In this document: positions 11,016 through 28,579 of the stretch, piece after piece
Layout: every line of letters starts with the position of its first letter
Numbering within the stretch: the stretch's first letter is position 1
Source of the DNA: a bacterium
GTDB lineage: Bacteria; Krumholzibacteriota; Krumholzibacteriia; Krumholzibacteriales; WJIX01
Direction of reading: 5' to 3'
Assembly: GCA_021160845.1 (NCBI GenBank)
Contig: JAGHBT010000225.1
Location: 1-28,579 of the forward strand
Length of the DNA: 28,579 nucleotides
Notes under the pieces: model-generated
What the model saw: only the letters and a program-made list of their open reading frames with translations
Database searches by the model: none
What the model was told of the DNA's origin: nothing
Position numbers and translations under genes: made by a program

Positions 11016-12736
11016 ACACTGCCACCCAACCCGTAGTACTCCACAACACAGATATAAAGACCGGTTACTACCATCCCCCCATTTGAATCAAGCCCATCCC
11101 ATAGGGTTGAAAAATAGTTCGCCCCATTCTTCTCCCCCGCGAGATTAACAATCTCCATTCCCTCCATATTAAATATTCTCACAAGAAACCCGGTATCTCG
11201 GGTTTGTGCCCTTCCGGAGATTACAACTCCTTTGTCCCTTGCCGGAGAAAAGGGGTTCGGCGAGATTGTAAATTTATCGTTTATTCCGAGAGCCCCGTGG
11301 AAGACCGAATTTGCCACTCCTGGAGTTGAACCGGCTGCGATAGAACAAGTGTGCCATAGTCCTCCCTCTATCGAACTGCATACAAAAGGAGAAAATCTCT
11401 CGATCGATATTCCTCTTTCTCCCTCTAGCATATCGTGGTATTCGATCTTCTCTACAACCCTCCCAAGCCTTCCCCTAAGAAGAATCTCCTCACAAGAAAA
11501 ATCGGTACTATAATCATTAAGCCCCGGCCAACCCCCTTCAACTCCATGAATCAAAACATCTCCATCAGAAACAATCCCTTTCATATCTCCAGGGAATTGA
11601 GCGAGAATCAAATACCCCCCAGGCGATATCACAAGATCATCACTGGTGATCAACCTAACTTTACGATTCGCGTCACTTAAAAAATAACCCTGTAAATTAA
11701 GTTTATTATCACCGGAATTATACAATTCGATCCATTCAGAACGGCCTGTAACCGGCCTGTACATAATTTCGTTTATTACAATATCAGTTGGGGAAAACAG
11801 AAAGGAAACAAAAGCTGTATCATTATTGCTGTTCCCGTCTATTTCTTCATCAAGAAATGCAAAGACCGACGCGCTGTCGAAAAACCCTGAAGCTGGAAAA
11901 TTGCATTCAATATCAATACTTTCTCCAGATTTTAATAGGTCGACATCACTGACTACAGTAAGTATTTCCCCTATACCATCCAAGGTATCAATTACGACTA
12001 TATGAACAAGACCGGAGAAATCATCAAGTCCACTATTGATTACTTCCAGTTTCAGATTAATCTGACCATTTGCGCAGGGCAAAAGGTCATCGTTTATTAT
12101 TGAAAGGGCAAGATCATTATCAAAGAAATTTTTTCTCATGGGCGTAGGGAAAACGGAAACAAAATCAAGATTATTATTTCCACTATCTTTTCCATCCGGT
12201 TTTCTCGCTATACTAAAGCCTTCCATCACATCGATCGTAGGTTCTGATTCATAGAGATCACTGAAACCTAGGGCTCCATAACCCACAAGGTCAACAACTG
12301 AACTATTATAGGTTAAACGCACGGCATCAGGACCATTCTGCAACACGCACTGCGCTATACAGTTCGGAGAGGGAATACAATCGACCCCACCGACAATAAG
12401 CATTCCGCCAAAAGCAAGATAGATATTATTTGTAAATTCATAATATGTCTCTGGTTTGCCTGTCCTTCCGTCAAGAAATTCAATACGGAAACCGGATAAA
12501 TTAATCGTTTCTTTTCCTGTATTCAGTAATTCAACAAACTCATGCCCGGTGTCACTCCCAGGATGATCATAATATATTTCATTGATTACGATCTGAGCGG
12601 AGCTTCGTGACGGGACAAAACATACCACGCCTGCTAAAAATGTTAACATCAACAATTTTACAAAAGACATGAATAAAGAAATTATATTTCTATGTGGAAG
12701 GAACTTCTTTCTGAAATCGCCTTTCAACATCATCAT
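10970..12736 (-). CDS. Secreted double lamin-tail-domain protein with CARDB-like Ig domain and FlgD/T9SS-type C-terminal domain
   Basis: Two LTD starts (IVINEIYYDHPGSDTGHEFVELLNTG and IVINEIMYRPVTGRSEWIELYNSG). C-terminal ISPNPFSP...VRIFNMEG...WDGLDSNGGMVVTGLYI. The SD GGAGG favours an ATG near 12736 rather than the GTG at 12745. Confidence 0.85.
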   Translation of the reverse strand: MMMLKGDFRKKFLPHRNIISLFMSFVKLLMLTFLAGVVCFVPSRSSAQIVINEIYYDHPGSDTGHEFVELLNTGKETINLSGFRIEFLDGRTGKPETYYEFTNNIYLAFGGMLIVGGVDCIPSPNCIAQCVLQNGPDAVRLTYNSSVVDLVGYGALGFSDLYESEPTIDVMEGFSIARKPDGKDSGNNNLDFVSVFPTPMRKNFFDNDLALSIINDDLLPCANGQINLKLEVINSGLDDFSGLVHIVVIDTLDGIGEILTVVSDVDLLKSGESIDIECNFPASGFFDSASVFAFLDEEIDGNSNNDTAFVSFLFSPTDIVINEIMYRPVTGRSEWIELYNSGDNKLNLQGYFLSDANRKVRLITSDDLVISPGGYLILAQFPGDMKGIVSDGDVLIHGVEGGWPGLNDYSTDFSCEEILLRGRLGRVVEKIEYHDMLEGERGISIERFSPFVCSSIEGGLWHTCSIAAGSTPGVANSVFHGALGINDKFTISPNPFSPARDKGVVISGRAQTRDTGFLVRIFNMEGMEIVNLAGEKNGANYFSTLWDGLDSNGGMVVTGLYICVVEYYGLGGSVCRREKRCLAVKAGG

Positions 12737-12762
12737 CACATCCACCTCCCCGGCTTAGAGTT

Positions 12763-12795
12763 GTGTAGACTACACCAAACCAAAACCCATTGCAA
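12763..12795 (-). promoter_or_regulatory. Putative promoter with an overlapping palindromic operator
   Basis: TTGCAA (12790-12795)-17 nt-TAGTCT (12767-12772). The perfect palindrome GTGTAG-A-CTACAC (12763-12775) covers the -10. Confidence 0.5.
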
Positions 12796-12855
12796 GAACT
12801 TTTTTAAAATTTTTTATGGAGTTTAAAGATGATCCCCTATTAACGGACGCCGTTC

Positions 12856-15030
12856 CTATACAAGTCCCCATATCTTTCTTAAAATCCACTCTGTGGTAAG
12901 AAAAAGGATAATTACAAAAAAGAATACTATATTTGAGCGAAAAGAAGTTGTACGAGTCATGTGGACTTCATTAACATGCGGGTTTAATCGATTAATAATC
13001 CCTTCTGCTTCATTTGGTACAAAGAACTGCCCCCCGGACTTTTTAGATAATCGCTTAAGGAAATCGCCATCCATAGATCTATGAATATATTCAACCGAGA
13101 GAGAATCAACGCTGAATTCAGTTTCTCCCTCAAACCCCTTGCCGGAATCCAGAATCTCCCTTGCCGCAACCCTGTAACGACCAGGACCGAGAGAGGGAAG
13201 CTTAACCCTAAAAACGCCCCTTTCCGGAATTTTCGGATCAAAGATAAAGGTCCGAATAAGCTCGTTCCCTTCCTTTTCCATTTTATAGAGCCTTCCCTTT
13301 ATGGCCTTAGGTAACCTCCTTTTTCCCAAATGCACTGATATCTGAGGCTCTTCCCCAGCATTGTACCTGTTCCTGGATGACACAACTTCGAGTGGTTGTC
13401 TGTCAGCACCGGAAGCAAAATATTGAATCAATGACGAGAAAAATGTATTGTAAATTTTCTCTCCCTCTATGCCCGCAAGTCTCCATCTCCAGAGTGGCAT
13501 CCCAAGCACTACACCCGACACCCCTTCTCCGCTGCGTTCAATAGCGACCAGGGGTTTTAAGTCACCTTTGTTTTCATCTAAATAAAGGGGTACGGTAGTC
13601 CCCATAGAAGGATTAAATCCTTCAAGATATACCGGCAGAGGAGGTAATTCATAAATCCCCCCGCATTCAGATAGCATTACGGAAACCGTGTTGTTACCCT
13701 CAGGGGAAAGTCTTAAATAGTACTCCCCCACGGACGCCCTAACCAAAGACAGCTTCTTTACCGGAATAATATCCTCGAGGAGCTTGAAAGATGAATCGTA
13801 TATTAATGGGCTACTTTCATCGGCAAGAAAAACAACTCCTCCACCTCCATGCACATAATCGATTAAAATATCCGCATTCTCGGCTATAGAGAAAGTCCTT
13901 TCGGCATCAGAAATAATAACCAGGTCATACCGTTTTAACCCATCGCTTCCTGATGGAAATTGCCACTTCAGATATTTTGGAATCTTTATATAACCCTGCC
14001 CCGGATTCCATGTAACAAAATCAAAATCAAACCTCTTCATTTCACCCGCGAGGTCACGCAAAAACTTCATATTCCAATCTGCATGCTCGTCTATATACAG
14101 AATATGCCTCACCTCTTCAAGTATCCCGAGGTTAAATCCCTCCGATCTTCTACCCGATAACTTCATTTCTTCACATTCCAGTATAATTTTCATCCTGTGA
14201 TCACTTGCTTTACCGGCAAGATAATCAAAAACGGCTCTATATTCACCTTCGCCATTTTCCGCTACGACCAATACACTATCTATTAACTCATCATCTTCAA
14301 ACAACCTTGCTTTTATGTGAACATTTTTTCTGAGTCCTTTAGCGGCTACGATAGTTTCAATCTTTGTTTTCATCCCGGAATAAACCCTTCTCTCATAGAT
14401 GATGTCTTCAATCGATAGATATCCACCCTTCAAAGTATTCCCAAATCCAATTGAATATACCGGAAGATTTATCCCTTCAATTAATGTTCTGTTGTTTGTC
14501 TGGATTCCGTCTGTAAGAAGTATTATTCCCGCCGGCTTAGAATACCTGTATCGATTGGCAACTGCTTCTATACTGCCTGTTATGTCAGTTCCCTCACCCT
14601 CTGCTTCAGGGATGCTATCGGCTTGCACCGGGTTTTTCCAGAGATTTTTTGAAAAAGGAATAATTTCTATATCAGCAGAATGTTTATCCCCGATATTTAT
14701 AAGTAACCCGTCGATAACAGAACGAGCAAATGCAATACGGCTTTCTCCTGAACAATCTTTTATGCTCATACTTTTTGAGACATCCACAAGTATTGGAATT
14801 ATTGGGGTTTTTTTCTCAGTGGCCAAATAGGTCAAAAGAGGATTTACAAAAAACAGAACAAGCGACAGAAAAGCCAGAGACCTCAGCCCCGCAAGAACAA
14901 ACCTCTTTGGACCGGAGATAGATGGAAAACATTTTCTATATATAAAAAGAGAAAAGAGTATAAGTACTGTGGCAGCGGCAAACCCCCATAGACCAATTTC
15001 AAGTAGTATATTTCCAACAGCTTCAAACAC
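12856..15030 (-). CDS. Membrane-anchored vWA-domain protein with an Ig-like region and a class I GATase-like region
   Basis: Two N-terminal TM helices; MIDAS residues LVDVSKSMS, GTDITGS and ILLTDG; central YDLVIISD...YVHGGGGVVF region; C-terminal TM (FFFVIILFLTTEWILRK). GTG 15030 follows the SD AGGAG (the track start is 15054). Confidence 0.85.
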   Translation of the reverse strand: MFEAVGNILLEIGLWGFAAATVLILFSLFIYRKCFPSISGPKRFVLAGLRSLAFLSLVLFFVNPLLTYLATEKKTPIIPILVDVSKSMSIKDCSGESRIAFARSVIDGLLINIGDKHSADIEIIPFSKNLWKNPVQADSIPEAEGEGTDITGSIEAVANRYRYSKPAGIILLTDGIQTNNRTLIEGINLPVYSIGFGNTLKGGYLSIEDIIYERRVYSGMKTKIETIVAAKGLRKNVHIKARLFEDDELIDSVLVVAENGEGEYRAVFDYLAGKASDHRMKIILECEEMKLSGRRSEGFNLGILEEVRHILYIDEHADWNMKFLRDLAGEMKRFDFDFVTWNPGQGYIKIPKYLKWQFPSGSDGLKRYDLVIISDAERTFSIAENADILIDYVHGGGGVVFLADESSPLIYDSSFKLLEDIIPVKKLSLVRASVGEYYLRLSPEGNNTVSVMLSECGGIYELPPLPVYLEGFNPSMGTTVPLYLDENKGDLKPLVAIERSGEGVSGVVLGMPLWRWRLAGIEGEKIYNTFFSSLIQYFASGADRQPLEVVSSRNRYNAGEEPQISVHLGKRRLPKAIKGRLYKMEKEGNELIRTFIFDPKIPERGVFRVKLPSLGPGRYRVAAREILDSGKGFEGETEFSVDSLSVEYIHRSMDGDFLKRLSKKSGGQFFVPNEAEGIINRLNPHVNEVHMTRTTSFRSNIVFFFVIILFLTTEWILRKIWGLV

Positions 15031-15060
15031 AGCTTCTCCTCTATCTGCAAACACCAGGAA

Positions 15061-15089: not shown

Positions 15090-15253
15090 GCCGGCAGAAA
15101 CAATATAATTCAACACTGGTATTGGAAAACGCCTGGGCATGATGATTGTAGCAAACTATTTTTCTTCGCCGATCAATCCAAACAGCGGCTTTAATCCGTC
15201 AAACCCGGATGCATGCGGAAACCCGGCAGGTTACCCCGCAAAGGTTCAGAATC

Positions 15254-15297
15254 ATGCAAAAAGAAAACGCCTTTCTCAAGAAGTTTCCCTTTTGCAT
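15254..15297 (-). terminator. Long stem-loop closing the STAS transcript
   Basis: Minus-strand ATGCAAAAGGGAAAC pairs with GTTTTCTTTTTGCAT (15 bp including 2 G-U pairs, 14-nt loop), 10 nt after the STAS stop. There is no classical U-tract. Confidence 0.55.
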
Positions 15298-15307
15298 TGT
15301 TTTTCTT

Positions 15308-15709
15308 TTAAATGATTTTTGTGCTCCCTGTTGTTTCTTTTTCTTTCTCAGGGATATTGCCAAAACTGGCGACTGCTTCTTCTACATTATCGTAGCTTTC
15401 AAGTATCGTTTGAAATTCAAGAAGCTCAAACACTTCATACACATCACCTACCATAGACGCAAGTTTAAGGTCTCCGCCATTCTCCCGGATTTTCTTAATC
15501 TCGCTAATAAAAATTCCCCACCCAGCAGAACTGACATAATCTACATCAGCTAAATCAATAATAATATCAAACCTCTGTTCTCGAAGAAGTTGTTTAATAC
15601 CCTTCTCCAATTCACTGGAGGTAGTTGTATCAATAAACCCACTCACATGTACAATAGAAATAGCTGAATTCCCTTCAGGTTTACTAAAAGAAATGCTAAT
15701 ATCATTCAT
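15308..15709 (-). CDS. STAS-domain anti-sigma-factor antagonist (RsbV/SpoIIAA-like)
   Basis: Motifs VHVSGFIDTTT, IIIDLADVDYVSSAGWGIF, GGDLKLASM and VYEVFELLEF. Confidence 0.92.
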   Translation of the reverse strand: MNDISISFSKPEGNSAISIVHVSGFIDTTTSSELEKGIKQLLREQRFDIIIDLADVDYVSSAGWGIFISEIKKIRENGGDLKLASMVGDVYEVFELLEFQTILESYDNVEEAVASFGNIPEKEKETTGSTKII

Positions 15710-15736
15710 GCTATTCTCTCTCTCTCAATTTGTATA

Positions 15737-16105
15737 CTAAGGCAAATTATTACTCTCTTGCGAATCGAAAGCAATCAGAGCATCCGTAGCCGATTCGTAA
15801 GGAGTTAACAGCGTGTCAAATTCTAAAAGCTCAAAAACGTCACGAACTTCGGGATTCATACCGGCAAGCTTTATATCACCTTTTTTTGCCCGTAAGCCTT
15901 TGATCTCAGAAACAAAAATCCCCCAACCCGCAGAACTAATGTAATCCACTTCCGTTAAATCAATTATCAACTTTACCTTGTACGCAACAATTAAATCATT
16001 AATCTTTGATTCAAGATAATAAGAAGTCGCGGAGTCCACTAACCCAGTCAGTTTCAATATTACCGTGTCTTCAACAAATTCTTCTTCAATATGCAACTCA
16101 TCCAT
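15737..16105 (-). CDS. STAS-domain anti-sigma-factor antagonist (RsbV/SpoIIAA-like)
   Basis: Motifs LKLTGLVDSAT, LIIDLTEVDYISSAGWGIF, KGDIKLAGMNPEV and VFELLEF. Confidence 0.92.
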   Translation of the reverse strand: MDELHIEEEFVEDTVILKLTGLVDSATSYYLESKINDLIVAYKVKLIIDLTEVDYISSAGWGIFVSEIKGLRAKKGDIKLAGMNPEVRDVFELLEFDTLLTPYESATDALIAFDSQESNNLP

Positions 16106-16151: not shown

Positions 16152-17273
16152 TCAGTCCAACAACGCCTTTAATAATATAAAAACACCATGCCTTTCATTC
16201 TCGGTTAATCTTATATTCTTTTTGGCTTTTTCATAATCTTTATTAATCATAACCGCTTTTTCGAAAGCCTTCCCGGCTTTATCCATAAACATCTTACACT
16301 TCGCCGTATAAAGTATTCCAAGCGAGTTGTAAGCATCCGCAAAATTCGGATTTTGATCAACTATCTTTTTCATAGCATCCAGATACTTATCAATTTCAAC
16401 TGGATCAAGATTATTATCACTTTGAAGTATAATCAAATAAAGTTCACTAATCACTTTATCTATATAGATTCTATCTGAAGCCTCTTCGACAGAATCCAAC
16501 AACTTCAAAACCTCATCATATTTACCTTTGCTGAAAAGTTCCTTTACTTCATCTGTTTTATCCCCATTTAAAGAAGGATTCAGTGTAGCAACTTTATCAA
16601 GATACTCGTCAAAATCACCTTCCAGTTCATGCGATAACTCATAATCCTGCTTTATTATTGAATTCATTATGTAAGTTCGGACTATATTCAAATATGGCGC
16701 GCCATAATAGTAATTTAGCTCAATTGCGCGCTTAAAACTATCAACCGCGCGCCTGCACTCATTTCGCCTGTAGTATATCTTCCCCGCAAGATTGTGAAGA
16801 TCAGGATAATCGATCCTTATCTTTAGTCCTTCATTGACAGCTTTAAAAGCCTTAGAATATTCCCCAATTTTGTACCATGACTCGCTGACTATTTTATAGG
16901 GTTCCGCCCCCTTCTCACCCTTTTTTATCGCTGTCTCAGCCTCATCAACAGCTTCATGATAAAGGTTCCGAAGAAACAATGCATTCGCAATCTTAAGATG
17001 GAATGAGGATTTGTCGGAAGAACTGATCTTTTCCTTTACATCCAGAAGAAGAAGAAACTTGTCTCTATTTCGATTATGAATAACCTTTGCCAGTTCAATG
17101 GCTTCGTCCATTGATTTTTCTTCCTTCAGTTGATAAGTATCTGAATCAAAAGATATCCCCTTCTTAAAAAACACGGTTATCACAGACCGATCCCGTGGCA
17201 GAAAAGTGGTCTGTAGAAAATACTCCTCCCCACCCCTGTTTATTTCCTCTCTCAATTCAAAATTATCAGCCAA
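16152..17273 (-). CDS. Cytoplasmic tetratricopeptide-repeat protein with an uncharacterised N-terminal module
   Basis: TTG start after AAGGAG. TPR-like units include YPDLHNLAGKIYYRRNECRRAVDSFKRAIELN and FADAYNSLGILY. No signal peptide. Confidence 0.85.
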   Translation of the reverse strand: MADNFELREEINRGGEEYFLQTTFLPRDRSVITVFFKKGISFDSDTYQLKEEKSMDEAIELAKVIHNRNRDKFLLLLDVKEKISSSDKSSFHLKIANALFLRNLYHEAVDEAETAIKKGEKGAEPYKIVSESWYKIGEYSKAFKAVNEGLKIRIDYPDLHNLAGKIYYRRNECRRAVDSFKRAIELNYYYGAPYLNIVRTYIMNSIIKQDYELSHELEGDFDEYLDKVATLNPSLNGDKTDEVKELFSKGKYDEVLKLLDSVEEASDRIYIDKVISELYLIILQSDNNLDPVEIDKYLDAMKKIVDQNPNFADAYNSLGILYTAKCKMFMDKAGKAFEKAVMINKDYEKAKKNIRLTENERHGVFILLKALLD

Positions 17274-17308: not shown

Positions 17309-17336
17309 AGAATACTCCAAAATATAGCAGTGTCAA
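17309..17336 (-). promoter_or_regulatory. Putative internal promoter for the TPR-STAS-STAS genes
   Basis: TTGACA-16 nt-TATTCT in the 80-nt gap after parA. Confidence 0.5.
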
Positions 17337-17353: not shown

Positions 17354-18088
17354 TTAAATATTTAATATCTCCTCCGTCAGACGATAATAATCAAAGGCTC
17401 CTCGAGAAAGTGGCGCGTGTTCATATATGGTTTCATTTGATCCGGGCGCTTCCCTCAAAGCGGTATTAACTCTAATCACAGTATTGAACACGCCTTCAGG
17501 AAACCGGGTTCTAATATCTTCAAGAACAAGCTTTGATATATTTGTACGGGAGTCAAAAAAAGTTGGAAGAATGGTGAAATTAATTGTTTTTTTTGAAATA
17601 AGCCATTTTACCTCTTTTATCATTCCAATAGTCTGGCTTGCTCCAGCTTGAGACAGATAATCGAGTGAAAGAGGAATGACAATCTCATCAGAGAATGCGA
17701 GAATGTTGATATTTATCAAATTCAGCGAGGGAGGGCAATCGCATATTACATAATCAGAGCCCTTAAGATTTGAAAGGGCTTTCACCATTCTTTTTTCGCG
17801 ATCCCTTTCCTTTCCAAGAAGAAGTTCCACCTCCACAAGATCAGCCCCTCCCGAATCAATAAGAAAGAGATTGTCCCTAACCTGCAGAATATCTACATCA
17901 CCTGTCCTGAGTAAACTGGAAAGTCCTCTTTTCCCCTCATTTCCAAAAGTGATTGCAGCATTTCTCTGTGGATCACAATCTATAAGCAAAACCTTTTTAC
18001 CGCTCAACGCGAGTCCATGAGCAAGATTTACGGCAGTAGTCGTTTTGCCCGTACCACCCTTCATTGTCATTATCGCGTATTTTTTCAT
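17354..18088 (-). CDS. ParA/Soj-family ATPase (orphan, no adjacent parB)
   Basis: Deviant Walker A KGGTGKTTT, IDCDPQRN, Walker B ICDCPPSL, FDSRTN and LREAP. ATGA overlap with the upstream stop codon. Confidence 0.92.
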   Translation of the reverse strand: MKKYAIMTMKGGTGKTTTAVNLAHGLALSGKKVLLIDCDPQRNAAITFGNEGKRGLSSLLRTGDVDILQVRDNLFLIDSGGADLVEVELLLGKERDREKRMVKALSNLKGSDYVICDCPPSLNLININILAFSDEIVIPLSLDYLSQAGASQTIGMIKEVKWLISKKTINFTILPTFFDSRTNISKLVLEDIRTRFPEGVFNTVIRVNTALREAPGSNETIYEHAPLSRGAFDYYRLTEEILNI

Positions 18089-21000
18089 TTTTTAGTTCCT
18101 TTGTTACCTTTTCTGTTAATATTGGAAAGCTTCTCCCCATAGGCACCCCACCCAAGATTCTTGATTTTCCTGTCTTTCTCTTCACGTTTGTCTACCTTGT
18201 CTCTTTCAATATCCAGACCGGAATAGGAGGAAACTCCTTGATGGTCTTCCGCCAATTCCCCAGAGTCACTACTATCCTCTTCCTTAGCGCTAACCTGATT
18301 AATATAGTCCTCTTCCGGAATTCGGGACGAATACAGAATTTCTCTTTCTGCTTTTCCGTCATATTTTTCAATTTTTTCCTCTACTTTTTTCCCTTGCCTA
18401 CCTTTGTTACGTTTTACTTTCTTAGACAATTTCTCTTCTCTATTTATGCCTTCCTTAACATCAGAAGACGTGGATTTTATCCAAGATGAATTTATCATAT
18501 CATCAATAGCCTTTTCCCTATCAAGAAAATGATTAATAAGCGGTTCAAATCCAAGATCAATAAAAATTTTGTATATTGCCGAGTTCATTCCGATAAGCGC
18601 CAATTTCGTTCCGGAACTATTCAACTGCTGAACATATTTGACAATATTCCCCCAGCCACTGCTGTTTATATAAACTACATCCGACAAATCAACCAGCAAG
18701 AAGGCTGGATTGTCAGACAATGACCGCTCCATATTGATCTCAAATTCATCATTTGTGGACGCGTCAATCGCACCGCTTACTTTCAGAACTACACCAACAT
18801 TCCCCGAAATTTTAATTCTCTCAAGATCAACTCCAAAAGTATAATTCTCAACCTCGTTCCGTTTTCTTCCCGTAACTACAACGGCAGGTTTAGATCCGAG
18901 GTTATTTTTGTCATGGCTGGATTCAGCAATTTCAACATTAAAATCCTCCACAGCCTCAGCTAATATATTAAACGAATGCATAAGATCATCGAATTCAAGC
19001 AGCTTGAATATCCTGTTAACATCCGGATCCATACCGAAGATTTTCAAATCACCGCCTTTCTTTCTCATCCCGTCAATCCTTGAGGCAAAAACGCCCCAAC
19101 CGGCACTGCTTACATATTCTACGCCGGACATGTCGGCAATAATCTTACTTGTACCTTTTCCCAATATACGATCAAAGGCTTCACGGAGTTCTAAAGAGCT
19201 TACCGTGTCGATTATACCTTGAAGCTCCAGAATAGTTATCTCTCCATTGTCCCCAACCAAACCCGCCTTTATTCGTAAAGGAGTCATATCAGATTCATCT
19301 ATGCTTAGTATTTCTGGAATTAATTTCTTTTCAGATTTCTTCTTTTTCCGACTTTTCCGTTTTACTTTAAGATGTTTCTGTCTTTCATGGAATGGAAGCG
19401 ATAGAAATCTAATCGCTTCTTCTTTCAACCTAAACTGCATAAGGATATCCATAAATCCCAGCAACTCAAATATGTCATAAACCTCGGGAGACATTCCCAC
19501 CAAAACAACATCCCCCTCTTTCTCCCTTAGATTCTTCACTCTACCCACAAATACCCCCCATCCACCACTGCTTATGTACAAAACATCATTTAAATCAACT
19601 ATAATATTCTTGGTTCCCTCCTCGTACAAATCCTCCATAACACTTTCCAATTCGCCGGTAGAGGAAGAATCAAGATGACCGGAGACTTTTAAAACGGTTA
19701 TATCCTCATTGTATTTTTCATCTTCAATCCTTACAGGGGAATCCGACCCATATCTGAATTCCTCAGCATCTTTCTCATATTCCCATTCTTTACTGAATTT
19801 CTCGTCACCGCGTTCCTCGATCACAGATTCTGAAACTCTTTCAAGACTACCCCCTGAACCCACGGACATTTCCCCTACAGTGTCTCTTTGAGGAGTTAAG
19901 ATCGAGCCTTTTTTCTGTTCTACAACTTCTTCCTCTCCAATAACAATTTCCCTTTTCACCTTCTTTATATCTATTGTTCCTTTTGTGCTATCTTCAATCT
20001 CCTGCTCCAATTTTATTCCATTTCTTCTCAAATAATCCAATCTCTTCTCATATGTATTCAGCCTCATTCTCTTTAGTTCGTTATAGACAAGCGAAGAAGT
20101 ATTTAGATTAGCTTTACCTCTTCCCAAATTAAGCCTATCAGCAATCCTCTTAGCTCCAAAGCGGGGGTTTTCCTTAATTACTTCCAGCAATTTCGTTCTT
20201 TGCTCATTACTCAAACGTCTTATAGCATGTTCTTCTCTTAGATTCTTATTCTTTAAACCGCGGTCCCCCATCAATTCCAACCGTTTTTTGTACCTGTAAT
20301 ATGTTGATGGAGATACCTTCATCTTACTGCAGGCATCAGTCACTGAGATTCCTTCCACACTGACCAAGTCAAGCAACCTTCTTCTAATGCCGAGCAATAC
20401 TTCATCCGCCATATACTTCTCTTTAAATGCGACTACCGTAATATCATCATTTTGCGGATATTGCCCCGTGAATTTATCAATCTCATTGCTCAAGATATCT
20501 ATAAATTCCTGAGGTGATTTGCTGCCACTTTTTTTCATCAATTTAAGAAGTCTTTTCTCGCCGAATTGCTCCCTCTTTTCATTCATAGCCTCAGTTACGC
20601 CATCTGTATAAATCAGGAGCATATCATTTTTTTTGAGTTTAATCTTTTCAACATCTATCGATTTCTCAAACAATTTATCATCCGGGAGATTTATTCCAAC
20701 CGGAAATCCTCGTGGATTCAAGTAGAATGTTTCATTCGTTTCTGCTCTGTAAAGAATCATGGGATTATGCCCCGCACTGGCGTAACTAATAACCCTGTTT
20801 CTTGAATCAAGAATCACATAGAATATTGTGACAAACATCCCTTTTTTCATATCTTGGGTAACAAACTCATTCATTTTGGCCATCACGTCAGCAGCCGAAT
20901 GGTTACCCCTGGCTTCCATTCGTAACGCCGTCCTAATCATCGTCATCACAAGCGATCCGGGGACACCTTTACCCGACACATCAGCTACAACAACTCCCAG

Positions 21001-22419
21001 TGTATCGTCATCAACATTCACAAAATCGTAATAATCCCCGCCAACCTCTTTAGCTGCTTTATAGTAACTTGCGATATCATATCCGCCTATTTCAGGTACA
21101 TTTCTCGGGAGAAGGGAATGCTGTATCTCTTGAGCAACCTGCATCTCTTTTTGCATTCTCTCTTGTTCTACCACACTCTCCTGAGCTACACGGAATTTTG
21201 CTGTAATTTCATTAAAGGCCTTCGCGATCGCGCCAATTTCTTTAGGCCCTTTTATATCGAGTTCATCCTCAAGCGAACCTTCACCGATAGCTATCACCCC
21301 GTCAGTGAGGGTTTGTATCGGTTTGATAAAAATGGAGATGAGCAAATAGACAAGGCCTATTCCCGACATAAACATACCAAACAATATCACTATAGTTTTA
21401 AAACGCTCGTCTTGTACTAACATTTCAATTTCAGCGCTGGATACTCCCATGGCCAACTGCCCCATAATAATCCTTTCACCGGGATTCTTCCCTGAAAGTA
21501 CAATAGGCAAATGAAACTCCTTAATATTCTCGTCATCCCTATTCAGTGCGATCCATTTTCCATCTGAAGATAAATCTCTGACCCGAGAAGGAGCCTCGTA
21601 CAGTTGTCCAAATTCATCGGCAATACTCGAAGAAACTACCATTCCTTTCATGTTGACCACTCGTATATACTTTATCTCTGGGTGAATTTTCATCCCATCA
21701 TGAATAAACTCATTTAACTTCCTGTATTCAGGGTGGTATAAATCATCTAAAACAAGGGCATTTTCACTCCTAAATTCGAGCGTCTGAGCAAAACTTCTCA
21801 TTTGCAGCCAAGCCTTTTGCCGGGCATTTTCGATATCCCGGGTCTGATTAATAAATTGAATAAGCCCAATAATCGCGATAATTCCAAAAAGACCTGTAGA
21901 AGCCCTCAATAGAAATTTAAATCTAAGTGTTTGAGTCCATTTTGTTTTAATTGAATGAACTAGAGGTCTTTTTCCGGAAAGGGACAATTTGGAACTCTTG
22001 GCCATGATTAGATGATTTCCGTCACTGGAAGATTCATATTTAATATCATCCATGAGACGATTCATTAAATATATTCCAAGACCACCCCTCTTCCCCATTT
22101 CAACATATTCCTCCAAATCCGGATCTTTAACTCCCGACCAGTTAAAAGGGTTCCCCTTGTCACGGAGATGAATTTCAACATTTCCCGACCAAACCCGCAT
22201 ATCCACTGTTATCTTACCTGATTTACCGCTATAGGCATGCTTTATGATATTTGTACAAGCCTCATCAACAGCCAGCTTTGTGTTATTTGTCTCTCGTTTG
22301 TTAAATCCCGCCTGTGCACAAACATTGGATACATAATCTCTTATCTCACCCAGATTATTCTCGTCTGCATGAATTTCAAGATGAAAATCTTTTTCATTTT
22401 TAAGGAAGGGGTTTTTCAA
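18085..22419 (-). CDS. Multidomain partner-switching sensor: RsbW-like HATPase - TM - extracytoplasmic sensor - TM - HAMP - SpoIIE/PP2C phosphatase - transposase-like HTH region - 3x STAS - charged tail
   Basis: HATPase motifs AVDEACTNIIKHAY, RDKG and GGLGIYLM. Two hydrophobic helices. HAMP KPIQTL...EIGAIAKAFN. PP2C motifs GGDYYDF, ADVSGKG, YTDGVTE and DDIT. HTH SVTDACSKMKVSPSTYYRY. Three STAS domains carrying S(S/A/G)GWG. TTG start directly abuts the upstream stop. Confidence 0.9.
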   Translation of the reverse strand: MKNPFLKNEKDFHLEIHADENNLGEIRDYVSNVCAQAGFNKRETNNTKLAVDEACTNIIKHAYSGKSGKITVDMRVWSGNVEIHLRDKGNPFNWSGVKDPDLEEYVEMGKRGGLGIYLMNRLMDDIKYESSSDGNHLIMAKSSKLSLSGKRPLVHSIKTKWTQTLRFKFLLRASTGLFGIIAIIGLIQFINQTRDIENARQKAWLQMRSFAQTLEFRSENALVLDDLYHPEYRKLNEFIHDGMKIHPEIKYIRVVNMKGMVVSSSIADEFGQLYEAPSRVRDLSSDGKWIALNRDDENIKEFHLPIVLSGKNPGERIIMGQLAMGVSSAEIEMLVQDERFKTIVILFGMFMSGIGLVYLLISIFIKPIQTLTDGVIAIGEGSLEDELDIKGPKEIGAIAKAFNEITAKFRVAQESVVEQERMQKEMQVAQEIQHSLLPRNVPEIGGYDIASYYKAAKEVGGDYYDFVNVDDDTLGVVVADVSGKGVPGSLVMTMIRTALRMEARGNHSAADVMAKMNEFVTQDMKKGMFVTIFYVILDSRNRVISYASAGHNPMILYRAETNETFYLNPRGFPVGINLPDDKLFEKSIDVEKIKLKKNDMLLIYTDGVTEAMNEKREQFGEKRLLKLMKKSGSKSPQEFIDILSNEIDKFTGQYPQNDDITVVAFKEKYMADEVLLGIRRRLLDLVSVEGISVTDACSKMKVSPSTYYRYKKRLELMGDRGLKNKNLREEHAIRRLSNEQRTKLLEVIKENPRFGAKRIADRLNLGRGKANLNTSSLVYNELKRMRLNTYEKRLDYLRRNGIKLEQEIEDSTKGTIDIKKVKREIVIGEEEVVEQKKGSILTPQRDTVGEMSVGSGGSLERVSESVIEERGDEKFSKEWEYEKDAEEFRYGSDSPVRIEDEKYNEDITVLKVSGHLDSSSTGELESVMEDLYEEGTKNIIVDLNDVLYISSGGWGVFVGRVKNLREKEGDVVLVGMSPEVYDIFELLGFMDILMQFRLKEEAIRFLSLPFHERQKHLKVKRKSRKKKKSEKKLIPEILSIDESDMTPLRIKAGLVGDNGEITILELQGIIDTVSSLELREAFDRILGKGTSKIIADMSGVEYVSSAGWGVFASRIDGMRKKGGDLKIFGMDPDVNRIFKLLEFDDLMHSFNILAEAVEDFNVEIAESSHDKNNLGSKPAVVVTGRKRNEVENYTFGVDLERIKISGNVGVVLKVSGAIDASTNDEFEINMERSLSDNPAFLLVDLSDVVYINSSGWGNIVKYVQQLNSSGTKLALIGMNSAIYKIFIDLGFEPLINHFLDREKAIDDMINSSWIKSTSSDVKEGINREEKLSKKVKRNKGRQGKKVEEKIEKYDGKAEREILYSSRIPEEDYINQVSAKEEDSSDSGELAEDHQGVSSYSGLDIERDKVDKREEKDRKIKNLGWGAYGEKLSNINRKGNKGTKK

Positions 22420-24312
22420 TTAATCCTTCTCCCCAGAATTAATTATTTCAAGCCTTTTGCCAGCTTCTTCAATATTCTTCTTTATACTTTCATTATCAGG
22501 ATCAATCTTTAGAATTTTATTCCATACTTCTATTGCCGACTTATACTTTCTTTGTGTAAAATGCTTCATTCCGTCTATGTACAGCTTCCGGATTTGTTCC
22601 TTTTCTTCATTCTTGAGAGGAGTTATCCGCCGCCGCGCTCTATCGAGCAACTTTAATGCCTCCTTATGATCAGGCTGAATCTTCAACACCCTTCCCAGCT
22701 GCTCTTCCGCTTTGGAATAATCGCCTGTGCTGAAATTATTCAACGCCTTTTCAAAGAGATCTATAGTTGTCAATTTTATTCTTGCCGAATCAAACTTTAC
22801 ACTCATAGCCCGCAACCGATCCTTTAACCTCTGCGCACCCTCTTCGGCTTCTTTATGCTTCGGATTAAGCGCTTTTATCATATTCCATTCATCCAGTGCC
22901 GCGGCTAATTTACCTGCCTCTTCAAAATCGATTGCTTTCTTCCTGTGGCGGTCAATCTGCTTAGAAAGTTTTTCCTCAATTTTCTTTATATATCCCTTTG
23001 CATTCTCATTATCAGGATCAATTTCAAGTAGAGAATTCCATTCTCCCCTTGATAGGAGATATTCATTGTTTCCGTAATATTTTAATCCCAGTTTAAAATG
23101 ACGCTTTATAAGAACCTGTTTTTCAACCGACTTAATCTCTTGCTGCTGTTTCTTGATTATCTCATCTTCCAAAACTGAAATCAGCCTCGAAGCCTCAACA
23201 TCCGACGGATCGTATTCGAGCGCAATCTTAAACTCATCATACGCCTTTTCAAGTTCTCCATTTTTTCTGAGAGATTTCGCTTTTTGCAGATGACTTTTGA
23301 GTCTGTCGGAAAGTACCTGCTTGAGATATCCTTCTTCTTCCTCCCTTCGACGCGCCGCTAGTGCTTCTCTCTTTCTCTCAATTGACTCGCCAAGATTAAC
23401 CGAAATTGAAAACGGATGAGAAGATCCGGCTTCATCACGGCTGAAATACCCGTAATCAGCAGTATATTCCTGCCATGAAAACCCTATTCCGGCGGTTATT
23501 TGCTCAGAGTCAAATCCAACCCGGAAACTGATTATATTTTTTAAATCATATTCGATACCAAACCTTAGATCATTATCGGCCCTCTCGGGCATATCAACTT
23601 GCGCGGAAGCAATCAGCGCCGACCCATTCTGAAATTCGTAAGAATACCCCACCCCAAACATCATGGTTCTATCAACCCTTTCACTAATAGATACAAGTTT
23701 TGTTTCAGCCCCTACTATATCCTGAATATTGCACCCCAGAACAAATCCTTTCAGATAAGAAAGCCTGTATAAAACTCCAACATCCATCCCCGTTCCCGTA
23801 TCTGAATAATCGCCTATACTCTGATTCAATACCTTAATTGATGTTCCGAGAGTGAACTTTCCTAACAGCTCAAATGGAATATCAAAGGCATAGGCCAATA
23901 ACCCCTGGCTTTCACGATAGGAAATTTCCCCCAGTTCATTACTAAATTCGTCAAACGCTCTTATCCCGCCGGTACCTGTTGTCATTATCCCGATTCCAAA
24001 GGCGCCGGATAAAAGGGTTGGATAAACCGCTCCAACAAAATCGTAATTCGCCCCACTGAAATCCGAGAATAGTTGAATGTGATTCACCATTATTCCCGTA
24101 TATTTATTTAATTTTAAACCGGCAGGATTGTAATAAATAACCGAAGGGTCATCACCAATGGCAGAAAATGCTCCACCCAGAGAAATAGCGCGCGAACCTG
24201 CTCCAAGAGTAAAAACCGATCTGGTTCCACCAACACCCACCTCGGCAAATACATCTTTACCCGTGGCAAGGAGTATTATTAAAATCAGAGTTGTTAATCT
24301 TTTCTTTCTCAT
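22420..24312 (-). CDS. PorV/PorQ-like (FadL-fold, UPF0164-like) outer-membrane barrel fused to C-terminal TPR repeats
   Basis: Signal peptide; family N-terminal motif GSRAISLGGAFSAIGDDPSVIYYNPAGL; about 300 aa of strands ending near SVNLG; then a helical region with several TPR-like units (ALEYDP, LLEIDP, VLKIQP, ILKIDP). Confidence 0.85.
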   Translation of the reverse strand: MRKKRLTTLILIILLATGKDVFAEVGVGGTRSVFTLGAGSRAISLGGAFSAIGDDPSVIYYNPAGLKLNKYTGIMVNHIQLFSDFSGANYDFVGAVYPTLLSGAFGIGIMTTGTGGIRAFDEFSNELGEISYRESQGLLAYAFDIPFELLGKFTLGTSIKVLNQSIGDYSDTGTGMDVGVLYRLSYLKGFVLGCNIQDIVGAETKLVSISERVDRTMMFGVGYSYEFQNGSALIASAQVDMPERADNDLRFGIEYDLKNIISFRVGFDSEQITAGIGFSWQEYTADYGYFSRDEAGSSHPFSISVNLGESIERKREALAARRREEEEGYLKQVLSDRLKSHLQKAKSLRKNGELEKAYDEFKIALEYDPSDVEASRLISVLEDEIIKKQQQEIKSVEKQVLIKRHFKLGLKYYGNNEYLLSRGEWNSLLEIDPDNENAKGYIKKIEEKLSKQIDRHRKKAIDFEEAGKLAAALDEWNMIKALNPKHKEAEEGAQRLKDRLRAMSVKFDSARIKLTTIDLFEKALNNFSTGDYSKAEEQLGRVLKIQPDHKEALKLLDRARRRITPLKNEEKEQIRKLYIDGMKHFTQRKYKSAIEVWNKILKIDPDNESIKKNIEEAGKRLEIINSGEKD

Positions 24313-24318
24313 ATCCTT

Positions 24319-27300
24319 CTACTTCGCAATTGCAATCTTGAAAATTGCGGAATTAGGTCCTGCCGTTATCTTACAGATATATATTCCGTTCCTGACAAGT
24401 TCACCACGGCCATTTCTTCCATCCCACAATACTATACACTCTTCTCCTCCGGGGCTTCCTGTAGCACCCTCACTTCCGGCGGCAATATCCTTTGACCAAA
24501 CTAAAATACCCGTGTAATCATAAATTTTTATATTCACATTTACATCTTCCACAAGAAAATATGCAATTCTCGTATTCTCACTTCCCGCTCTAAAGGGATT
24601 TGGATAATTATGTGCGTATTCGGAAAAATTGCCGCTCATAATTGTAAAGGGAGTATTATAAAAATGCCCCGCTATTTCACTTCCTCCTCCTCTCCAGACT
24701 ACGCTAACCGGAGCGCTTTGCCCTCCGATAGAAAATTTAATGTCATTACTACGAACAAGTTCAACTCTCATGCCGCCGATTGGAACGCTAAGGGCAATAT
24801 CAACTTCCACACTCGCTGTAGCGCTATCAGTTGAATTGATTGTGAACCCATGATCCACAATAATCGGTATGGGATTTATACCATCGGCTTCTGACGAATA
24901 CCTTCTTCCATCTTCTGTGACAAAACTTACACTGTCCACAAACTGTGAAGGATTTTCAATATCCATACCGTTCACATCACGGATAGTTACATAAAGTGTA
25001 TCAAGGCCTACGGTATATGCGGAATTGTTACTGAAAGAAATTTTTAGCATCGGCACATCCCGGGTTCCCTGCGGTACTACATGCGGAGGAATGGCAATTG
25101 TGTCACTTTCGGAAATATTATTCATAGCAACAGTGCCCGCCTCTGTCTTTACCGGTATTAATATCTCTGCCGTATCTATTTCGGCCGTCTTGTTTGTATT
25201 AGAATCATTAGCGTAAGGCTCTGCAAAATAAATGCGAATATTACCCGGAGGTGACTTTGTGGAAGGCGCTTTCAAATTCCAGATAATGGGTTCTCCAATA
25301 CGGAATGCCTTGCTGCTGTCTCCATTAATAAACGAATATCCCGGTGGAAGGGCTATCTTTAATCTTGCTCCTGTTGTATCAATCACTGCCCTTCCTTTAT
25401 TTTCGATCTCAGCTTCAACGGTAAAGGGGAGGTTAACAGACAGTTCCCCTTCAAGAGCCTGCTGAGGCCCTGATATCGCCGCAGATAAATTAATCAAAGC
25501 GGCAGATTCGGTTTCAACTTCTAAAGAGTAATTACAACCGCTGAAAGCGATACCTGAATTGACATCTACTCCGCCTGTAGTCAGCTGTATCTGCCGTTTT
25601 TGCAAATCTTCATCCGGGGGCGCTGTCAGGCTCCAAACAACATATGTTTCCGTTCCTTCGCCACTTTCAACATCACGTTTTAAATCTCCATCGACTGAAT
25701 ATCCGGAAGGAAGAGAAAGCTCCAGCCACACTCCATCAGAATTGGCGGAGGGTGTAACGGCTGCTCTGAGTGAAAAGTTCTGATTTGTCGATAAGAGTCT
25801 ATCCACAGCACCTGGAGGCGAATCAACCGATAAATTACAATTCCGAACAACCCCCTTCTCTTCTGTTAGGATAGTAATGCTATCAAGCGGCTCGGCACAA
25901 AAAGCCGGAGCGCCGATGTTAATATCAACGGGAGAAGTAGTGATTCCAACCCTCAGAATATCAGAGGTAGCAACAGCCGATGGAGAAAGCAGTGTCCACG
26001 CAACATTCTCATTAGGAATAAAGATCCTAGTCAATGGCTCATGCACGGGGTAAACAGATGAAAAACCATCAGGCAATGTTATAGTTATTCTTCCCGAATT
26101 ATCAACTAGCGCTTCCCCCCTGTTGGATACACTAGCTGTAACAGTGAAGTTCTGTTCTGTTGAAAGGGTATCATCAACCGCTCCCGGAGGAGATATTATC
26201 CCCACTTTACAAACAAGTTCCGCCGCACTCTGTATTTGAATATTTTCAACCGATTCTACAGCCTGTATCGGGTAAATTTCTTCACCTGTACTAACTGATA
26301 CGGCTTTTGTTATGGAAGCGGAAAGAATTTCAACACCCTTATTGGAAGACGCCGTAACATCAAAAACAAAAATACCCTGCGTCCCGGTGTCGAGATAGGG
26401 ACAACTGTCAGACAAACTGATTACCGAACTCCCGTCAGTTACAAGAGATACATCAATACTATCCAGCTCATCGCCTCCTGTATTTTCAATCCGTACGGTA
26501 ATATTAAACTCCTGAGTAATATTCACAATAGAGGTGTTTGGGATTAAAAGGTTATTCGGAGCATCACTTTCTACCGAAATAATCCTCAGTCCGGCGGGTT
26601 CCCTAACAATTACCGCAGAATCACCACTCGCCTGCGTCTGTGCCGAATCAGGATTATTTTCATCCAGCCAGTCCAGCAACATACTTACCGAAACAGTTCC
26701 TGTATCAACTCCTGTAGATGATATCTGATATTCCAGTGAATCAATACCGCCACCCATCAGGGTAAAACCGGAAGCGCCTGATGCAAATTCACTCGGGGCA
26801 ATCACAAGATAATCTGTAAGTTGATTTAGGTTTTTAAAGAAATTGATATCCTCACTTCCTGGCTGATTCAGTGTTACAGGAGCCTCCCCACTATTTCTAA
26901 CAACAGCAGTCAGAAACCAGTCAACCGTTTGTCCGGCCGTTAGATATATCTGCGATGGAGCAACCCTTGTTATATCAAGTATACCGTGATTTTGTATCTC
27001 CGCTGTTGCCGTGCTGTCAACGGCCTCTGAAAATTTAACGATGTTACTCTGTCCGGAATTTGTATCAACGGCGGATTCCAGCACCACAGAGAAATCTTCT
27101 GTGGCAGCGGAGGAAGAAGCCCTGACATAAAATGTATCTTCAGCAACTTCCCCTTCATCGAGAAGAATTAAATAATGAATTGGTTTTTCAATAAAGGAAG
27201 CTCCCTCGCCTGACAAAGAAACCGCGATACTATCGGCCGCTGCGCCCCCGCTGTTTTCAACTTGAACTACAATGGGAAAATACTGCTCACAATTCACAAA

Positions 27301-28579
27301 AGGAGAACGAGGAGCTGCATTCTCAAGTGAAAGAACTGACAATATAGCCGGTGTTTGTATCTCAATAATTCCATAACCTGTATTTTCAATACCGGAATCA
27401 AAACTCAAAAATTGCAATCTGTTATCCTCAAATACACCAACACGGCTGTATATCTCCAAATTTTCAGTATTTGTTACCAAGGGAGATGGAGTGACGCTGA
27501 ATACAAGGTGCCCGGATTCTCCTCCGGCCAACACAATTCCGCCGCCGGAAAATCCGGAGGGCAGAGTGGGTACTGAGAGATTATAATTGCTGTATATATA
27601 AGTGCTATCCATAGAAAGTGTCACATCTGCTTCACCCTGATTTTCAACTAGAAGATCGACTTTCCAGACCGAGGTTTGTCCTGAAGTAATAGCATCTTGG
27701 CTAATGGTAGTCCCTGTAACAGCAACAACGGCGGGGTCCTGAATAAAAATGTACCCTCCCCCTCCATTAAATGTGTCATCGGTTACTATATTACCACTGT
27801 TCACGTCACTCGCGGTTACGTAAGCATTAATTGCAGCTATACCCGTGGATGAACCGGTTGATGTAATTCTGAACAAAAGGGTGTCTACCTGATTCCCCGC
27901 TAGAATAGTTGTTCCGGACCTCTGAAGGCTCTCAGGGTTTACAATGGTGTATTCTCCCGTACAATCACCAGAACCTGGGATATTAAAAGTCAGGTATGTA
28001 TTCAGATCTGAAAGATCCATATCTACTGACGCTTCGCCAGTGTTGTGGACGATCATCCTTACAAGCCAGGCGGGCTGTAAAGACGCCGTAACACTCTGGG
28101 GACTTACGATACTTGTAATACTTAAACGGGGAGCCACTTCAATTTCAATACTATCGGCAACAGAAGAAAGGTTTGTTTCAAAATCATTCCCATTCTCGAT
28201 CCCTTCAAGATGGATCAGAAACATGTAGGATCCAGCCGCAATAGAAGTGTCGACCGTGCTACTCTCAAACCTAAGGGTAATACTCTCTCCCCCTGAAATC
28301 ATATTTTGTGAAGTGGACGAGAGATACGCCTTAAAACTATCTTCATCTGCGTCAGCGAAAGATATGTACGTATTTGAAGGATAAAGTTCCAAAGTGGAAT
28401 GTTCATTATCTGAATTCAATATCCCCAATTCCACGGAGATTTCGGTTCCCCCGCTCGCCGAAAGAGGAGATAGGCTGGACAACACATATTCCGGAATTGG
28501 CTGCAGTTCAAACTTAACTGAATCAGTAGTCGTGATTGTTCCGGGGTAAGTATAAACTGTGTTACCACTATTAATCTCA
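24319..28579 (-). CDS. Giant secreted/surface protein with repeated Ig-like (CARDB-like) modules and a FlgD/T9SS type-A-like C-terminal domain (5' end outside the window)
   Basis: The frame stays open from 28485 to the window edge (EINSGNTVYTYPG...), so the track start is not the true start. Ser/Thr/Asp-rich repeated V.N.GEA/GG modules. C-terminal HNYPNPF...IKIYDYTG...WDGRNGRGELVRNGIYICKI. Confidence 0.88.
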   Translation of the reverse strand, partial: EINSGNTVYTYPGTITTTDSVKFELQPIPEYVLSSLSPLSASGGTEISVELGILNSDNEHSTLELYPSNTYISFADADEDSFKAYLSSTSQNMISGGESITLRFESSTVDTSIAAGSYMFLIHLEGIENGNDFETNLSSVADSIEIEVAPRLSITSIVSPQSVTASLQPAWLVRMIVHNTGEASVDMDLSDLNTYLTFNIPGSGDCTGEYTIVNPESLQRSGTTILAGNQVDTLLFRITSTGSSTGIAAINAYVTASDVNSGNIVTDDTFNGGGGYIFIQDPAVVAVTGTTISQDAITSGQTSVWKVDLLVENQGEADVTLSMDSTYIYSNYNLSVPTLPSGFSGGGIVLAGGESGHLVFSVTPSPLVTNTENLEIYSRVGVFEDNRLQFLSFDSGIENTGYGIIEIQTPAILSVLSLENAAPRSPFVNCEQYFPIVVQVENSGGAAADSIAVSLSGEGASFIEKPIHYLILLDEGEVAEDTFYVRASSSAATEDFSVVLESAVDTNSGQSNIVKFSEAVDSTATAEIQNHGILDITRVAPSQIYLTAGQTVDWFLTAVVRNSGEAPVTLNQPGSEDINFFKNLNQLTDYLVIAPSEFASGASGFTLMGGGIDSLEYQISSTGVDTGTVSVSMLLDWLDENNPDSAQTQASGDSAVIVREPAGLRIISVESDAPNNLLIPNTSIVNITQEFNITVRIENTGGDELDSIDVSLVTDGSSVISLSDSCPYLDTGTQGIFVFDVTASSNKGVEILSASITKAVSVSTGEEIYPIQAVESVENIQIQSAAELVCKVGIISPPGAVDDTLSTEQNFTVTASVSNRGEALVDNSGRITITLPDGFSSVYPVHEPLTRIFIPNENVAWTLLSPSAVATSDILRVGITTSPVDINIGAPAFCAEPLDSITILTEEKGVVRNCNLSVDSPPGAVDRLLSTNQNFSLRAAVTPSANSDGVWLELSLPSGYSVDGDLKRDVESGEGTETYVVWSLTAPPDEDLQKRQIQLTTGGVDVNSGIAFSGCNYSLEVETESAALINLSAAISGPQQALEGELSVNLPFTVEAEIENKGRAVIDTTGARLKIALPPGYSFINGDSSKAFRIGEPIIWNLKAPSTKSPPGNIRIYFAEPYANDSNTNKTAEIDTAEILIPVKTEAGTVAMNNISESDTIAIPPHVVPQGTRDVPMLKISFSNNSAYTVGLDTLYVTIRDVNGMDIENPSQFVDSVSFVTEDGRRYSSEADGINPIPIIVDHGFTINSTDSATASVEVDIALSVPIGGMRVELVRSNDIKFSIGGQSAPVSVVWRGGGSEIAGHFYNTPFTIMSGNFSEYAHNYPNPFRAGSENTRIAYFLVEDVNVNIKIYDYTGILVWSKDIAAGSEGATGSPGGEECIVLWDGRNGRGELVRNGIYICKITAGPNSAIFKIAIAK

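Follow-up and report, generated by a model that had tools for sequence, protein, structure and literature searches.

We identified an ancient, selectively maintained helix-turn-helix (HTH) module of transposase origin within a partner-switching signalling protein encoded by a member of the Krumholzibacteriota (lineage WJIX01; GenBank assembly GCA_021160845.1). The window analyzed here is the whole 28,579-nucleotide (nt) stretch of contig JAGHBT010000225.1, and the sensor gene occupies positions 18,085–22,419 of its minus strand as an open reading frame (ORF) of 1444 amino acids (aa) with a TTG start; the full-length orthologues are about 1400 aa long. Pfam and NCBIfam matches place its domains in the order RsbW-type kinase, transmembrane span, Cache-like domain, transmembrane span, HAMP, PP2C phosphatase, IS481-type HTH module, acidic linker, three STAS domains and a charged tail. 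The module itself (aa 668–823; 19,951–20,418, minus strand) is recognized by its match to the IS481 transposase model NF033577, a colinear alignment, an all-helical AlphaFold2 (AF2) model and its charge. In the reading that we favour, to which we give roughly even chances, this anciently domesticated bipartite HTH serves as the putative DNA-binding output of a phospho-switch that operates without a sigma factor.

When the excised segment (aa 660–830) was compared with the NCBIfam model transpos_IS481 (NF033577), residues 679–823 aligned with profile positions 2–141 of 284 at an E-value of 7.2e-17, and the IS3 and IS630 models were about ten orders of magnitude weaker on the same segment. The similarity is far beyond chance and bears out the first-pass annotation of this DNA, which had described, directly after the end of the PP2C domain (DDITVVAFKE), the two-HTH N-terminus of an IS481-type transposase. 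The peptide quoted there is found letter for letter in the reading frame at 18,088–22,419 (minus strand), with the HTH text at aa 678–793 (20,040–20,390). In Pfam searches of the excised segment, HTH_23 (score 31.0, gathering threshold 24.6), HTH_28 (27.4, threshold 25) and HTH_Tnp_1 (27.2, threshold 24.1) passed; HTH_32 fell just below its threshold (30.5 against 33.7). Similarity to Sigma70_r4_2 was weak (E 0.027). The whole-profile score of the module is 61.8 bits, which is under the curated NF033577 cut-off of 224 bits. Genuine IS481 transposases encoded by relatives within the same phylum score 249–278 bits, and their first 140 residues are colinear with the module at 26–30% identity. Motifs common to the module and these real transposases are S-x-x-T-F/Y-Y-R, G-x-x-x-L, P-x-x-G-x-x-R-I and L-x-R-x-x-L-N/E-T.

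Compared with the IS481 transposases described by NF033577, the likeness covers approximately 140 colinear residues, including S-x-x-T-x-Y-R in HTH1, the G-x-x-G-L linker, and P-x-x-G-x-x-R-I and L-x-R-x-x-L in HTH2. The module differs from them in lacking the DDE half and inverted repeats, in being single-copy, and in its fixed syntenic site between PP2C and STAS. No rve/DDE catalytic core is among the Pfam matches and profile positions 142–284 remain unmatched, with the acidic linker and STAS domains standing there instead; a search for IS-like inverted repeats flanking the segment found none. The earlier description of an in-frame fusion with neither a DDE core nor insertion sequence (IS) ends therefore stands. 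A second IS481-like match is absent from the source genome assembly, which is 84% complete, and the GC content of the module, overall and at third codon positions (GC3), equals that of the rest of the gene. Of the four features that define an IS481 transposase, the segment lacks three, and we therefore class it as a domesticated domain, not as a transposase. Domestication of the transposase region is well supported.

The module begins with a conserved helix (aa 668–687; 20,359–20,418, minus strand) that bridges the last PP2C strand and HTH1 and corresponds to the helix at residues 2–20 of the AF2 model. Its conservation scores are 6–9 on a 9-point scale, with several invariant positions (A4, D5, L8, R12, D17 and V19 of alignment A1). 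The HTH1 subdomain (aa 678–725; 20,245–20,388, minus strand), recognized by HTH_23, HTH_28 and HTH_Tnp_1 and conserved among orthologues, carries the recognition-helix motif S-P-S-T-Y-Y-R-Y-K-K-R (aa 703–713; 20,281–20,313, minus strand) in invariant alignment columns, and S-P-S-T-Y-Y-R-Y-x-x-R is unchanged across orthologues. It is followed by a G-x-R-G-L linker and the HTH2 subdomain (together aa 726–800; 20,020–20,244, minus strand), which includes the motifs P-x-F-G-A-K-R-I and Y-x-E-L-K-R-x-R-L-N-T. Conservation continues to about aa 805, so that with helix 668–687 in front the module is slightly wider than the region first delimited (aa 678–793; 20,040–20,390). Behind it lies the poorly conserved acidic linker to STAS1 (aa 824–895; 19,735–19,950, minus strand; net charge −11).

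All 41 relatives examined, from three families and 18 genera, carry the module, always as a single copy and, short contigs or broken assemblies excepted, inside an ORF of approximately 1400 aa. Across 107 full-length orthologues, mean identity to the present protein is 80% for PP2C, 72% for HTH1, 54% for HTH2 and 7% for the adjoining linker, the occupancy of which is 59% in the same alignment. Most pairs of genomes are saturated at synonymous sites; in the only usable pair, G001/G004 (synonymous divergence dS of approximately 0.2), the ratio of nonsynonymous to synonymous substitution rates (dN/dS) is lowest in PP2C (0.06) and the module (0.11) and higher in the linker (0.27) and the tail (0.48). 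The module is thereby shown to be under strong purifying selection. In a few relatives with few contigs (L015 in G154; G036:C1:1300395-1300859; L031 in G096), the sensor gene is split into shorter ORFs, for example of 296 and 809 aa; these splits most likely represent assembly frameshift errors, not real gene fission.

In a sample of 201 genomes from the phylum, the module matched strongly in the order of the source organism and in families f7 and f9 and more weakly in f8; f4–f6 had no match. A search of f4–f6 for an orthologue without the HTH returned only PP2C paralogues that have no N-terminal kinase; no HTH-less orthologue was seen in these families because the whole orthologous sensor is absent there. 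In f8 and some f9 genomes, the sensor ends after the HTH (814–861 aa) and STAS is a separate gene. The HTH stays in place where STAS is detached, and the module therefore belongs with PP2C, independently of STAS fusion.

In a wider search, the module profile yielded 795 matches among 1.84 billion representative proteins. The best 150 of these are mostly kinase-HAMP-PP2C-HTH proteins, in which the C-terminus is absent, consists of three STAS domains, or consists of an acidic tract and tetratricopeptide repeats (TPRs). A scan of species genomes, Krumholzibacteriota among them, detected the PP2C-HTH junction in 387 stretches, with titles that include candidate division KSB1, Calditrichota/Caldithrix and Zhuqueibacterota. 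The module is thus shown to be fixed directly behind PP2C across several phyla. A quick tree places all 61 modules linked to PP2C in one group (Shimodaira–Hasegawa-like approximate likelihood ratio support, SH-aLRT, of 94), apart from five transposases and a family of tandem-HTH glycosyltransferases; this single group fits one old capture. The glycosyltransferase family (P0176, P0254, P0187, P0190, P0182 and P0156 among the 795 matches) carries the same IS481-like module, either as two tandem copies at the N-terminus of glycosyltransferase family 2 (GT2) proteins of 1100–2900 aa or alone in proteins of approximately 300 aa, and forms its own group in the tree. It was not found in the source genome or in five KSB1/Calditrichota genomes.

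The AF2 model of the module alone is all-helical, with a mean predicted local distance difference test (pLDDT) score of 78.7 and a predicted template modelling (pTM) score of 0.51; the modelled part of the acidic linker (aa 811–830) has pLDDT values below 50. Modelling of PP2C and HTH together (aa 425–805, 73-row alignment) gave a pLDDT of 88.7 and a pTM of 0.84, with HTH blocks mostly at 84–93. Because a pTM of 0.84 would be hard to reach with a third of the chain floating free, we infer that the module sits at a defined place on PP2C, at least as predicted. The module consists of two helical bundles and a linker, as do solved bipartite DNA-binding domains, and its best whole-module fold matches are those of the Pax5/6 paired domain, TnsB, MuA, IstA and Tc3, with modest scores; the single halves match ordinary HTH regulators. 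The likeness to Pax paired, TnsB, MuA and Tc3 (PDB 6pax, 1k78, 8rdu, 7pik, 4fcy and 1u78) lies in an architecture of two bundles, each of three helices, with a linker between them. The paired domain is the classic instance of a host transcription factor domain that arose from the DNA-binding region of a transposase. Comparison of the module profile with PDB sequences returned nothing significant (best E 0.11). With transposase or paired bipartite HTHs as its nearest folds, and with its conservation in orthologues and dN/dS of 0.11, the region conforms to the original proposal of a co-opted host domain in place of a recent scar.

Within the sensor, strong basicity is confined to the module, which has a net charge of +17 over 156 residues as opposed to −16 for the whole protein and ranges from +7 to +17 in orthologues. 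The tract behind it is acidic in 83% of Krumholzibacteria members (median −10 over approximately 71 residues) and in 94% of KSB1-type members (median −36 over the first 200 residues). Where a basic domain has an acidic tract beside it, this usually marks a nucleic-acid surface subject to competition, and it may do so here.

The remainder of the sensor has the composition of a partner switch. Its RsbW/SpoIIAB-type serine kinase (HATPase_c_2, PF13581, E 8e-29) is located at aa 17–141 (21,997–22,371, minus strand). Two hydrophobic spans flank a weak sCache_3_2 match, followed by HAMP (aa 360–404) and a SpoIIE-type PP2C domain (PF07228, E 2e-50; aa 470–666; 20,422–21,012, minus strand) immediately before the HTH module. 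Three STAS domains (aa 896–1295; 18,535–19,734, minus strand) are supported by Pfam STAS in three stretches (E 5e-55) and by TIGR00377, and each retains a serine at the phospho-acceptor position of its translation (SSGGWG, SSAGWG and NSSGWG). Pfam detected no Response_reg domain in the sensor, which has membrane spans and the Cache-like and HAMP domains in its stead.

Immediately downstream, a gene for a ParA/MinD-type ATPase (AAA_31, E 8e-38; 17,354–18,088, minus strand) has a start that overlaps the sensor stop. This translationally coupled gene is kept in Krumholzibacteria loci in which STAS is fused, is absent from family f8 cassettes, and is not found within 6 kb in 80 KSB1/Calditrichota loci, which were drawn from the 387 stretches with the PP2C-HTH junction; it is a lineage-specific addition to the cassette. 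It is followed by a separate gene for a TPR protein (16,152–17,273) and by two free-standing STAS genes (Pfam STAS; 15,737–16,105 and 15,308–15,709, minus strand). Upstream of the sensor are genes encoding, by Pfam, a PorP/SprF-like barrel with TPRs (22,420–24,312, minus strand) and a giant CARDB/Ig surface protein (24,319–28,485, minus strand). In the 80 distant loci, the giant CARDB/Ig protein recurs around the sensor in 65, the barrel in 69 and STAS in 75; the Krumholzibacteria cassette has the same gene order, plus ParA, TPR and a second STAS. Among the ten cassette neighbours scanned, Pfam detected neither a sigma factor nor any other DNA-binding protein.

The TPR and ParA genes occur only in cassettes with three STAS domains fused to the sensor and are missing from those of f8 and KSB1/Calditrichota. 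In KSB1-type homologues (P0137, P0202, P0228 and P0214), the TPRs are fused to the C-terminus of the sensor behind a long acidic tract. The TPR protein, separate here and fused there, is thereby linked to the sensor complex. A 20-nt inverted repeat (15,254–15,297; 80% complementary, with a 4-nt loop) that immediately follows the stop codon of STASb, the final STAS gene, is probably the operon terminator and not a protein-binding site. The region downstream of the operon (8527–15,054 of the window) is syntenic across the class, including the short f8 cassettes, and encodes a 732-aa protein without a Pfam match, a Lamin-tail-domain protein, and proteins of 270 and 586 aa without a match.

In KSB1/Calditrichota, the free STAS protein encoded downstream of the sensor has a C-terminal tail of approximately 60 residues that is conserved in about 72 of the 80 loci (L034–L113; for example L034:9208-9885). 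In about 22 loci, this tail cross-matches HTH2 of the sensor at 31–37% identity (E 1e-4 to 4e-6); when a single STAS protein was compared directly by BLASTP with the HTH region of its own sensor, the match did not reach significance (E 0.14). The same tail search returned no matches for the Krumholzibacteria STAS genes (15,308–16,105 of the window), and these organisms have three STAS domains fused behind the HTH in lieu of a tailed free STAS. The alternative fusions among lineages suggest, at the level of gene architecture, that HTH, STAS and TPR may work in one complex.

Partner-switching modules are textbook regulators of sigma factors, and control of STAS phosphorylation by kinase and PP2C is established for the RsbW/RsbU/RsbV families. 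In the canonical RsbW/RsbV/sigma switch the sigma gene is encoded with it, which is not so among the ten neighbours here, although a distant partner is possible. Rv1364c of Mycobacterium tuberculosis, which is thought to act on SigF, combines a sensor, PP2C, RsbW-like kinase and STAS in one chain and is a precedent for partner-switch parts, STAS substrate included, in a single polypeptide; it differs in being soluble and in having one STAS and no HTH module. The membrane-bound one-component regulators ToxR and CadC are single chains, anchored in the membrane, that join a periplasmic sensor to a DNA-binding domain in the cytoplasm. The present protein would resemble them in that respect if its module binds DNA, but their domain is an N-terminal OmpR-type winged helix, and kinase, phosphatase and STAS chemistry are all absent from them.

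Among studied systems, SypE/SypA of Vibrio fischeri comes closest: a single protein with both kinase and PP2C domains controls the STAS protein SypA; this STAS protein, and no sigma factor, appears to be the downstream element, and the system controls a cell-surface (biofilm) locus (PMC10120452). The likeness to SypE lies in an RsbW-type kinase and PP2C that share one protein and set STAS phosphorylation, and in what would be STAS substrates with a serine in the motif S-S-G/A-G-W-G, three in cis and two encoded downstream here. SypE differs in being cytoplasmic with a central receiver, and in having no transmembrane/Cache/HAMP sensor, HTH module or STAS in cis. A further difference is that direct DNA binding may be the output of the present family. 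The Krumholzibacteria form is particular in that the module sits between PP2C and three fused STAS domains, with a coupled ParA gene. Our survey of the literature on PP2C and partner-switching proteins with transposase-type HTHs, IS481 domestication and Krumholzibacteria found no description of the PP2C-HTH architecture. Source annotations name the homologues only "anti-sigma factor antagonist" or "SpoIIE phosphatase", and the module goes unnoticed because automated annotation uses only those names.

In the mechanism that we favour, these sensors would be inner-membrane proteins in which the RsbW-type kinase, the Cache/HAMP sensor and PP2C act on STAS domains, with kinase and PP2C setting the STAS phospho-state. 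The transposase-derived module, held on PP2C by the conserved helix, would be the DNA-binding (transcriptional) output, and the state of the phosphatase, the STAS domains and the acidic tract would control whether it can reach DNA. In this lineage the STAS domains trail the module on an acidic, probably disordered linker, which could potentially compete with DNA. The likely target would be the cassette itself (the giant surface protein, the PorP-like barrel and the STAS genes), as with membrane-bound one-component regulators. We are more tentative about a broader proposal, which seems possible but somewhat doubtful: that the capture predates the split of Krumholzibacteriota, KSB1 and Calditrichota, and that the HTH replaces a sigma factor as the direct output of a self-contained, membrane-embedded partner switch, gated by phospho-STAS and an acidic DNA-mimicking tract and governing a cassette of surface proteins such as type IX secretion handles.

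Several points weigh against a DNA-binding output. A search of 11–13 orthologous loci for shared k-mers (6–9 nt, both strands) found none above shuffled controls in any of three classes of intergenic region (in front of the giant gene, between ParA and TPR, and between STASb and the next gene); of the DNA in front of the giant gene, this contig includes just 94 nt. The first-pass annotation had put forward 17,309–17,336 and 15,194–15,297 as target regions, which lose support here in that no motif beyond the shuffled controls is common to the orthologous loci and 15,254–15,297 resembles a terminator hairpin. Membrane anchoring also limits the reach of the protein to DNA. The predicted docking on PP2C would fit a purely regulatory or protein-binding role equally well, and the HTH2-like tail on the KSB1/Calditrichota STAS proteins may mean that such modules pair with each other, DNA aside. 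Finally, at least eight sigma-70 family genes are present elsewhere in the genome, with eight sigma-70 region 2 (r2) matches on other contigs, and one of them could be a classical target of the kinase domain.

The strongest competitor, which we consider possible but doubtful, is a module that has ceased to bind DNA and instead acts as a docking or regulatory domain of the phosphatase, for STAS recruitment, dimerization or control of the PP2C switch. Such a role would suit a module that is always fused to the PP2C C-terminus via a conserved helix and is predicted as docked (pTM of 0.84, against 0.51 alone), as well as the STAS tail, which is homologous to HTH2 in at least 22 loci and is kept in about 72 of the 80, the covalent tethering of STAS behind the module in Krumholzibacteria, and the empty k-mer search. 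It sits less easily with the strong positive charge kept in orthologues, with a classical recognition helix as the most conserved stretch, with whole-module fold relatives that are all DNA-binding domains solved on DNA, and with the adjacent acidic tract, if this does mark a competed nucleic-acid surface. Non-specific DNA binding, by which the membrane complex would be tethered to the nucleoid for positioning by the adjacent ParA-type ATPase, is unlikely in our view. The highly basic module and the coupled ParA gene, conserved in STAS-fused Krumholzibacteria loci, speak for it, but cassettes that have no ParA (f8 and the 80 KSB1/Calditrichota loci) conserve the module just as well, so that it predates the ParA association, and the invariant recognition-helix residues argue for a specific target. 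The nucleoid tethering suggested in the first-pass annotation is weakened by this retention in lineages without ParA.

That annotation had also envisaged the module as a replacement for a missing sigma factor, a premise that fails genome-wide given the sigma-70 genes on other contigs, any of which may be an ordinary partner for the kinase. A stricter form of the idea, in which the module is sequestered by the RsbW-like domain and freed when unphosphorylated STAS binds the kinase, appears to us improbable. It draws on the lack of a sigma gene among the scanned cassette neighbours, on the presence of all other partner-switch parts in one polypeptide, and on the weak Sigma70_r4_2 similarity (E 0.027), but the latter is no better than for any HTH and no positive evidence of kinase-module contact exists; a complex prediction for the kinase domain (aa 1–150) and the module (aa 668–830) with orthologue alignments scored 0.00, which gives no verdict either way. 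A recent IS scar, or a chance or annotation artefact without function, has nothing more than the transposase similarity in its favour and is refuted by in-frame presence in all 41 relatives and in 387 species genomes, a dN/dS of 0.11, host-like composition, and the absence of inverted repeats and stop codons; we regard its probability as negligible.

In conclusion, the sensor family spans hundreds of genomes from poorly known phyla and clearly illustrates, in bacteria, how the DNA-binding region of a transposase can be domesticated as part of a host signalling protein. The giant surface protein and the PorP-like barrel, which constantly accompany the sensor, suggest that it controls the cell surface. 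Several partner switches work without a sigma factor, SypE/SypA among them, and the module described here, welded to the phosphatase, is a concrete and testable candidate for the output of such a system. If the capture did precede the split of these phyla and the HTH is indeed the output, this would represent a signalling logic that has so far gone undescribed and a bacterial counterpart to the origin of the Pax paired domain.

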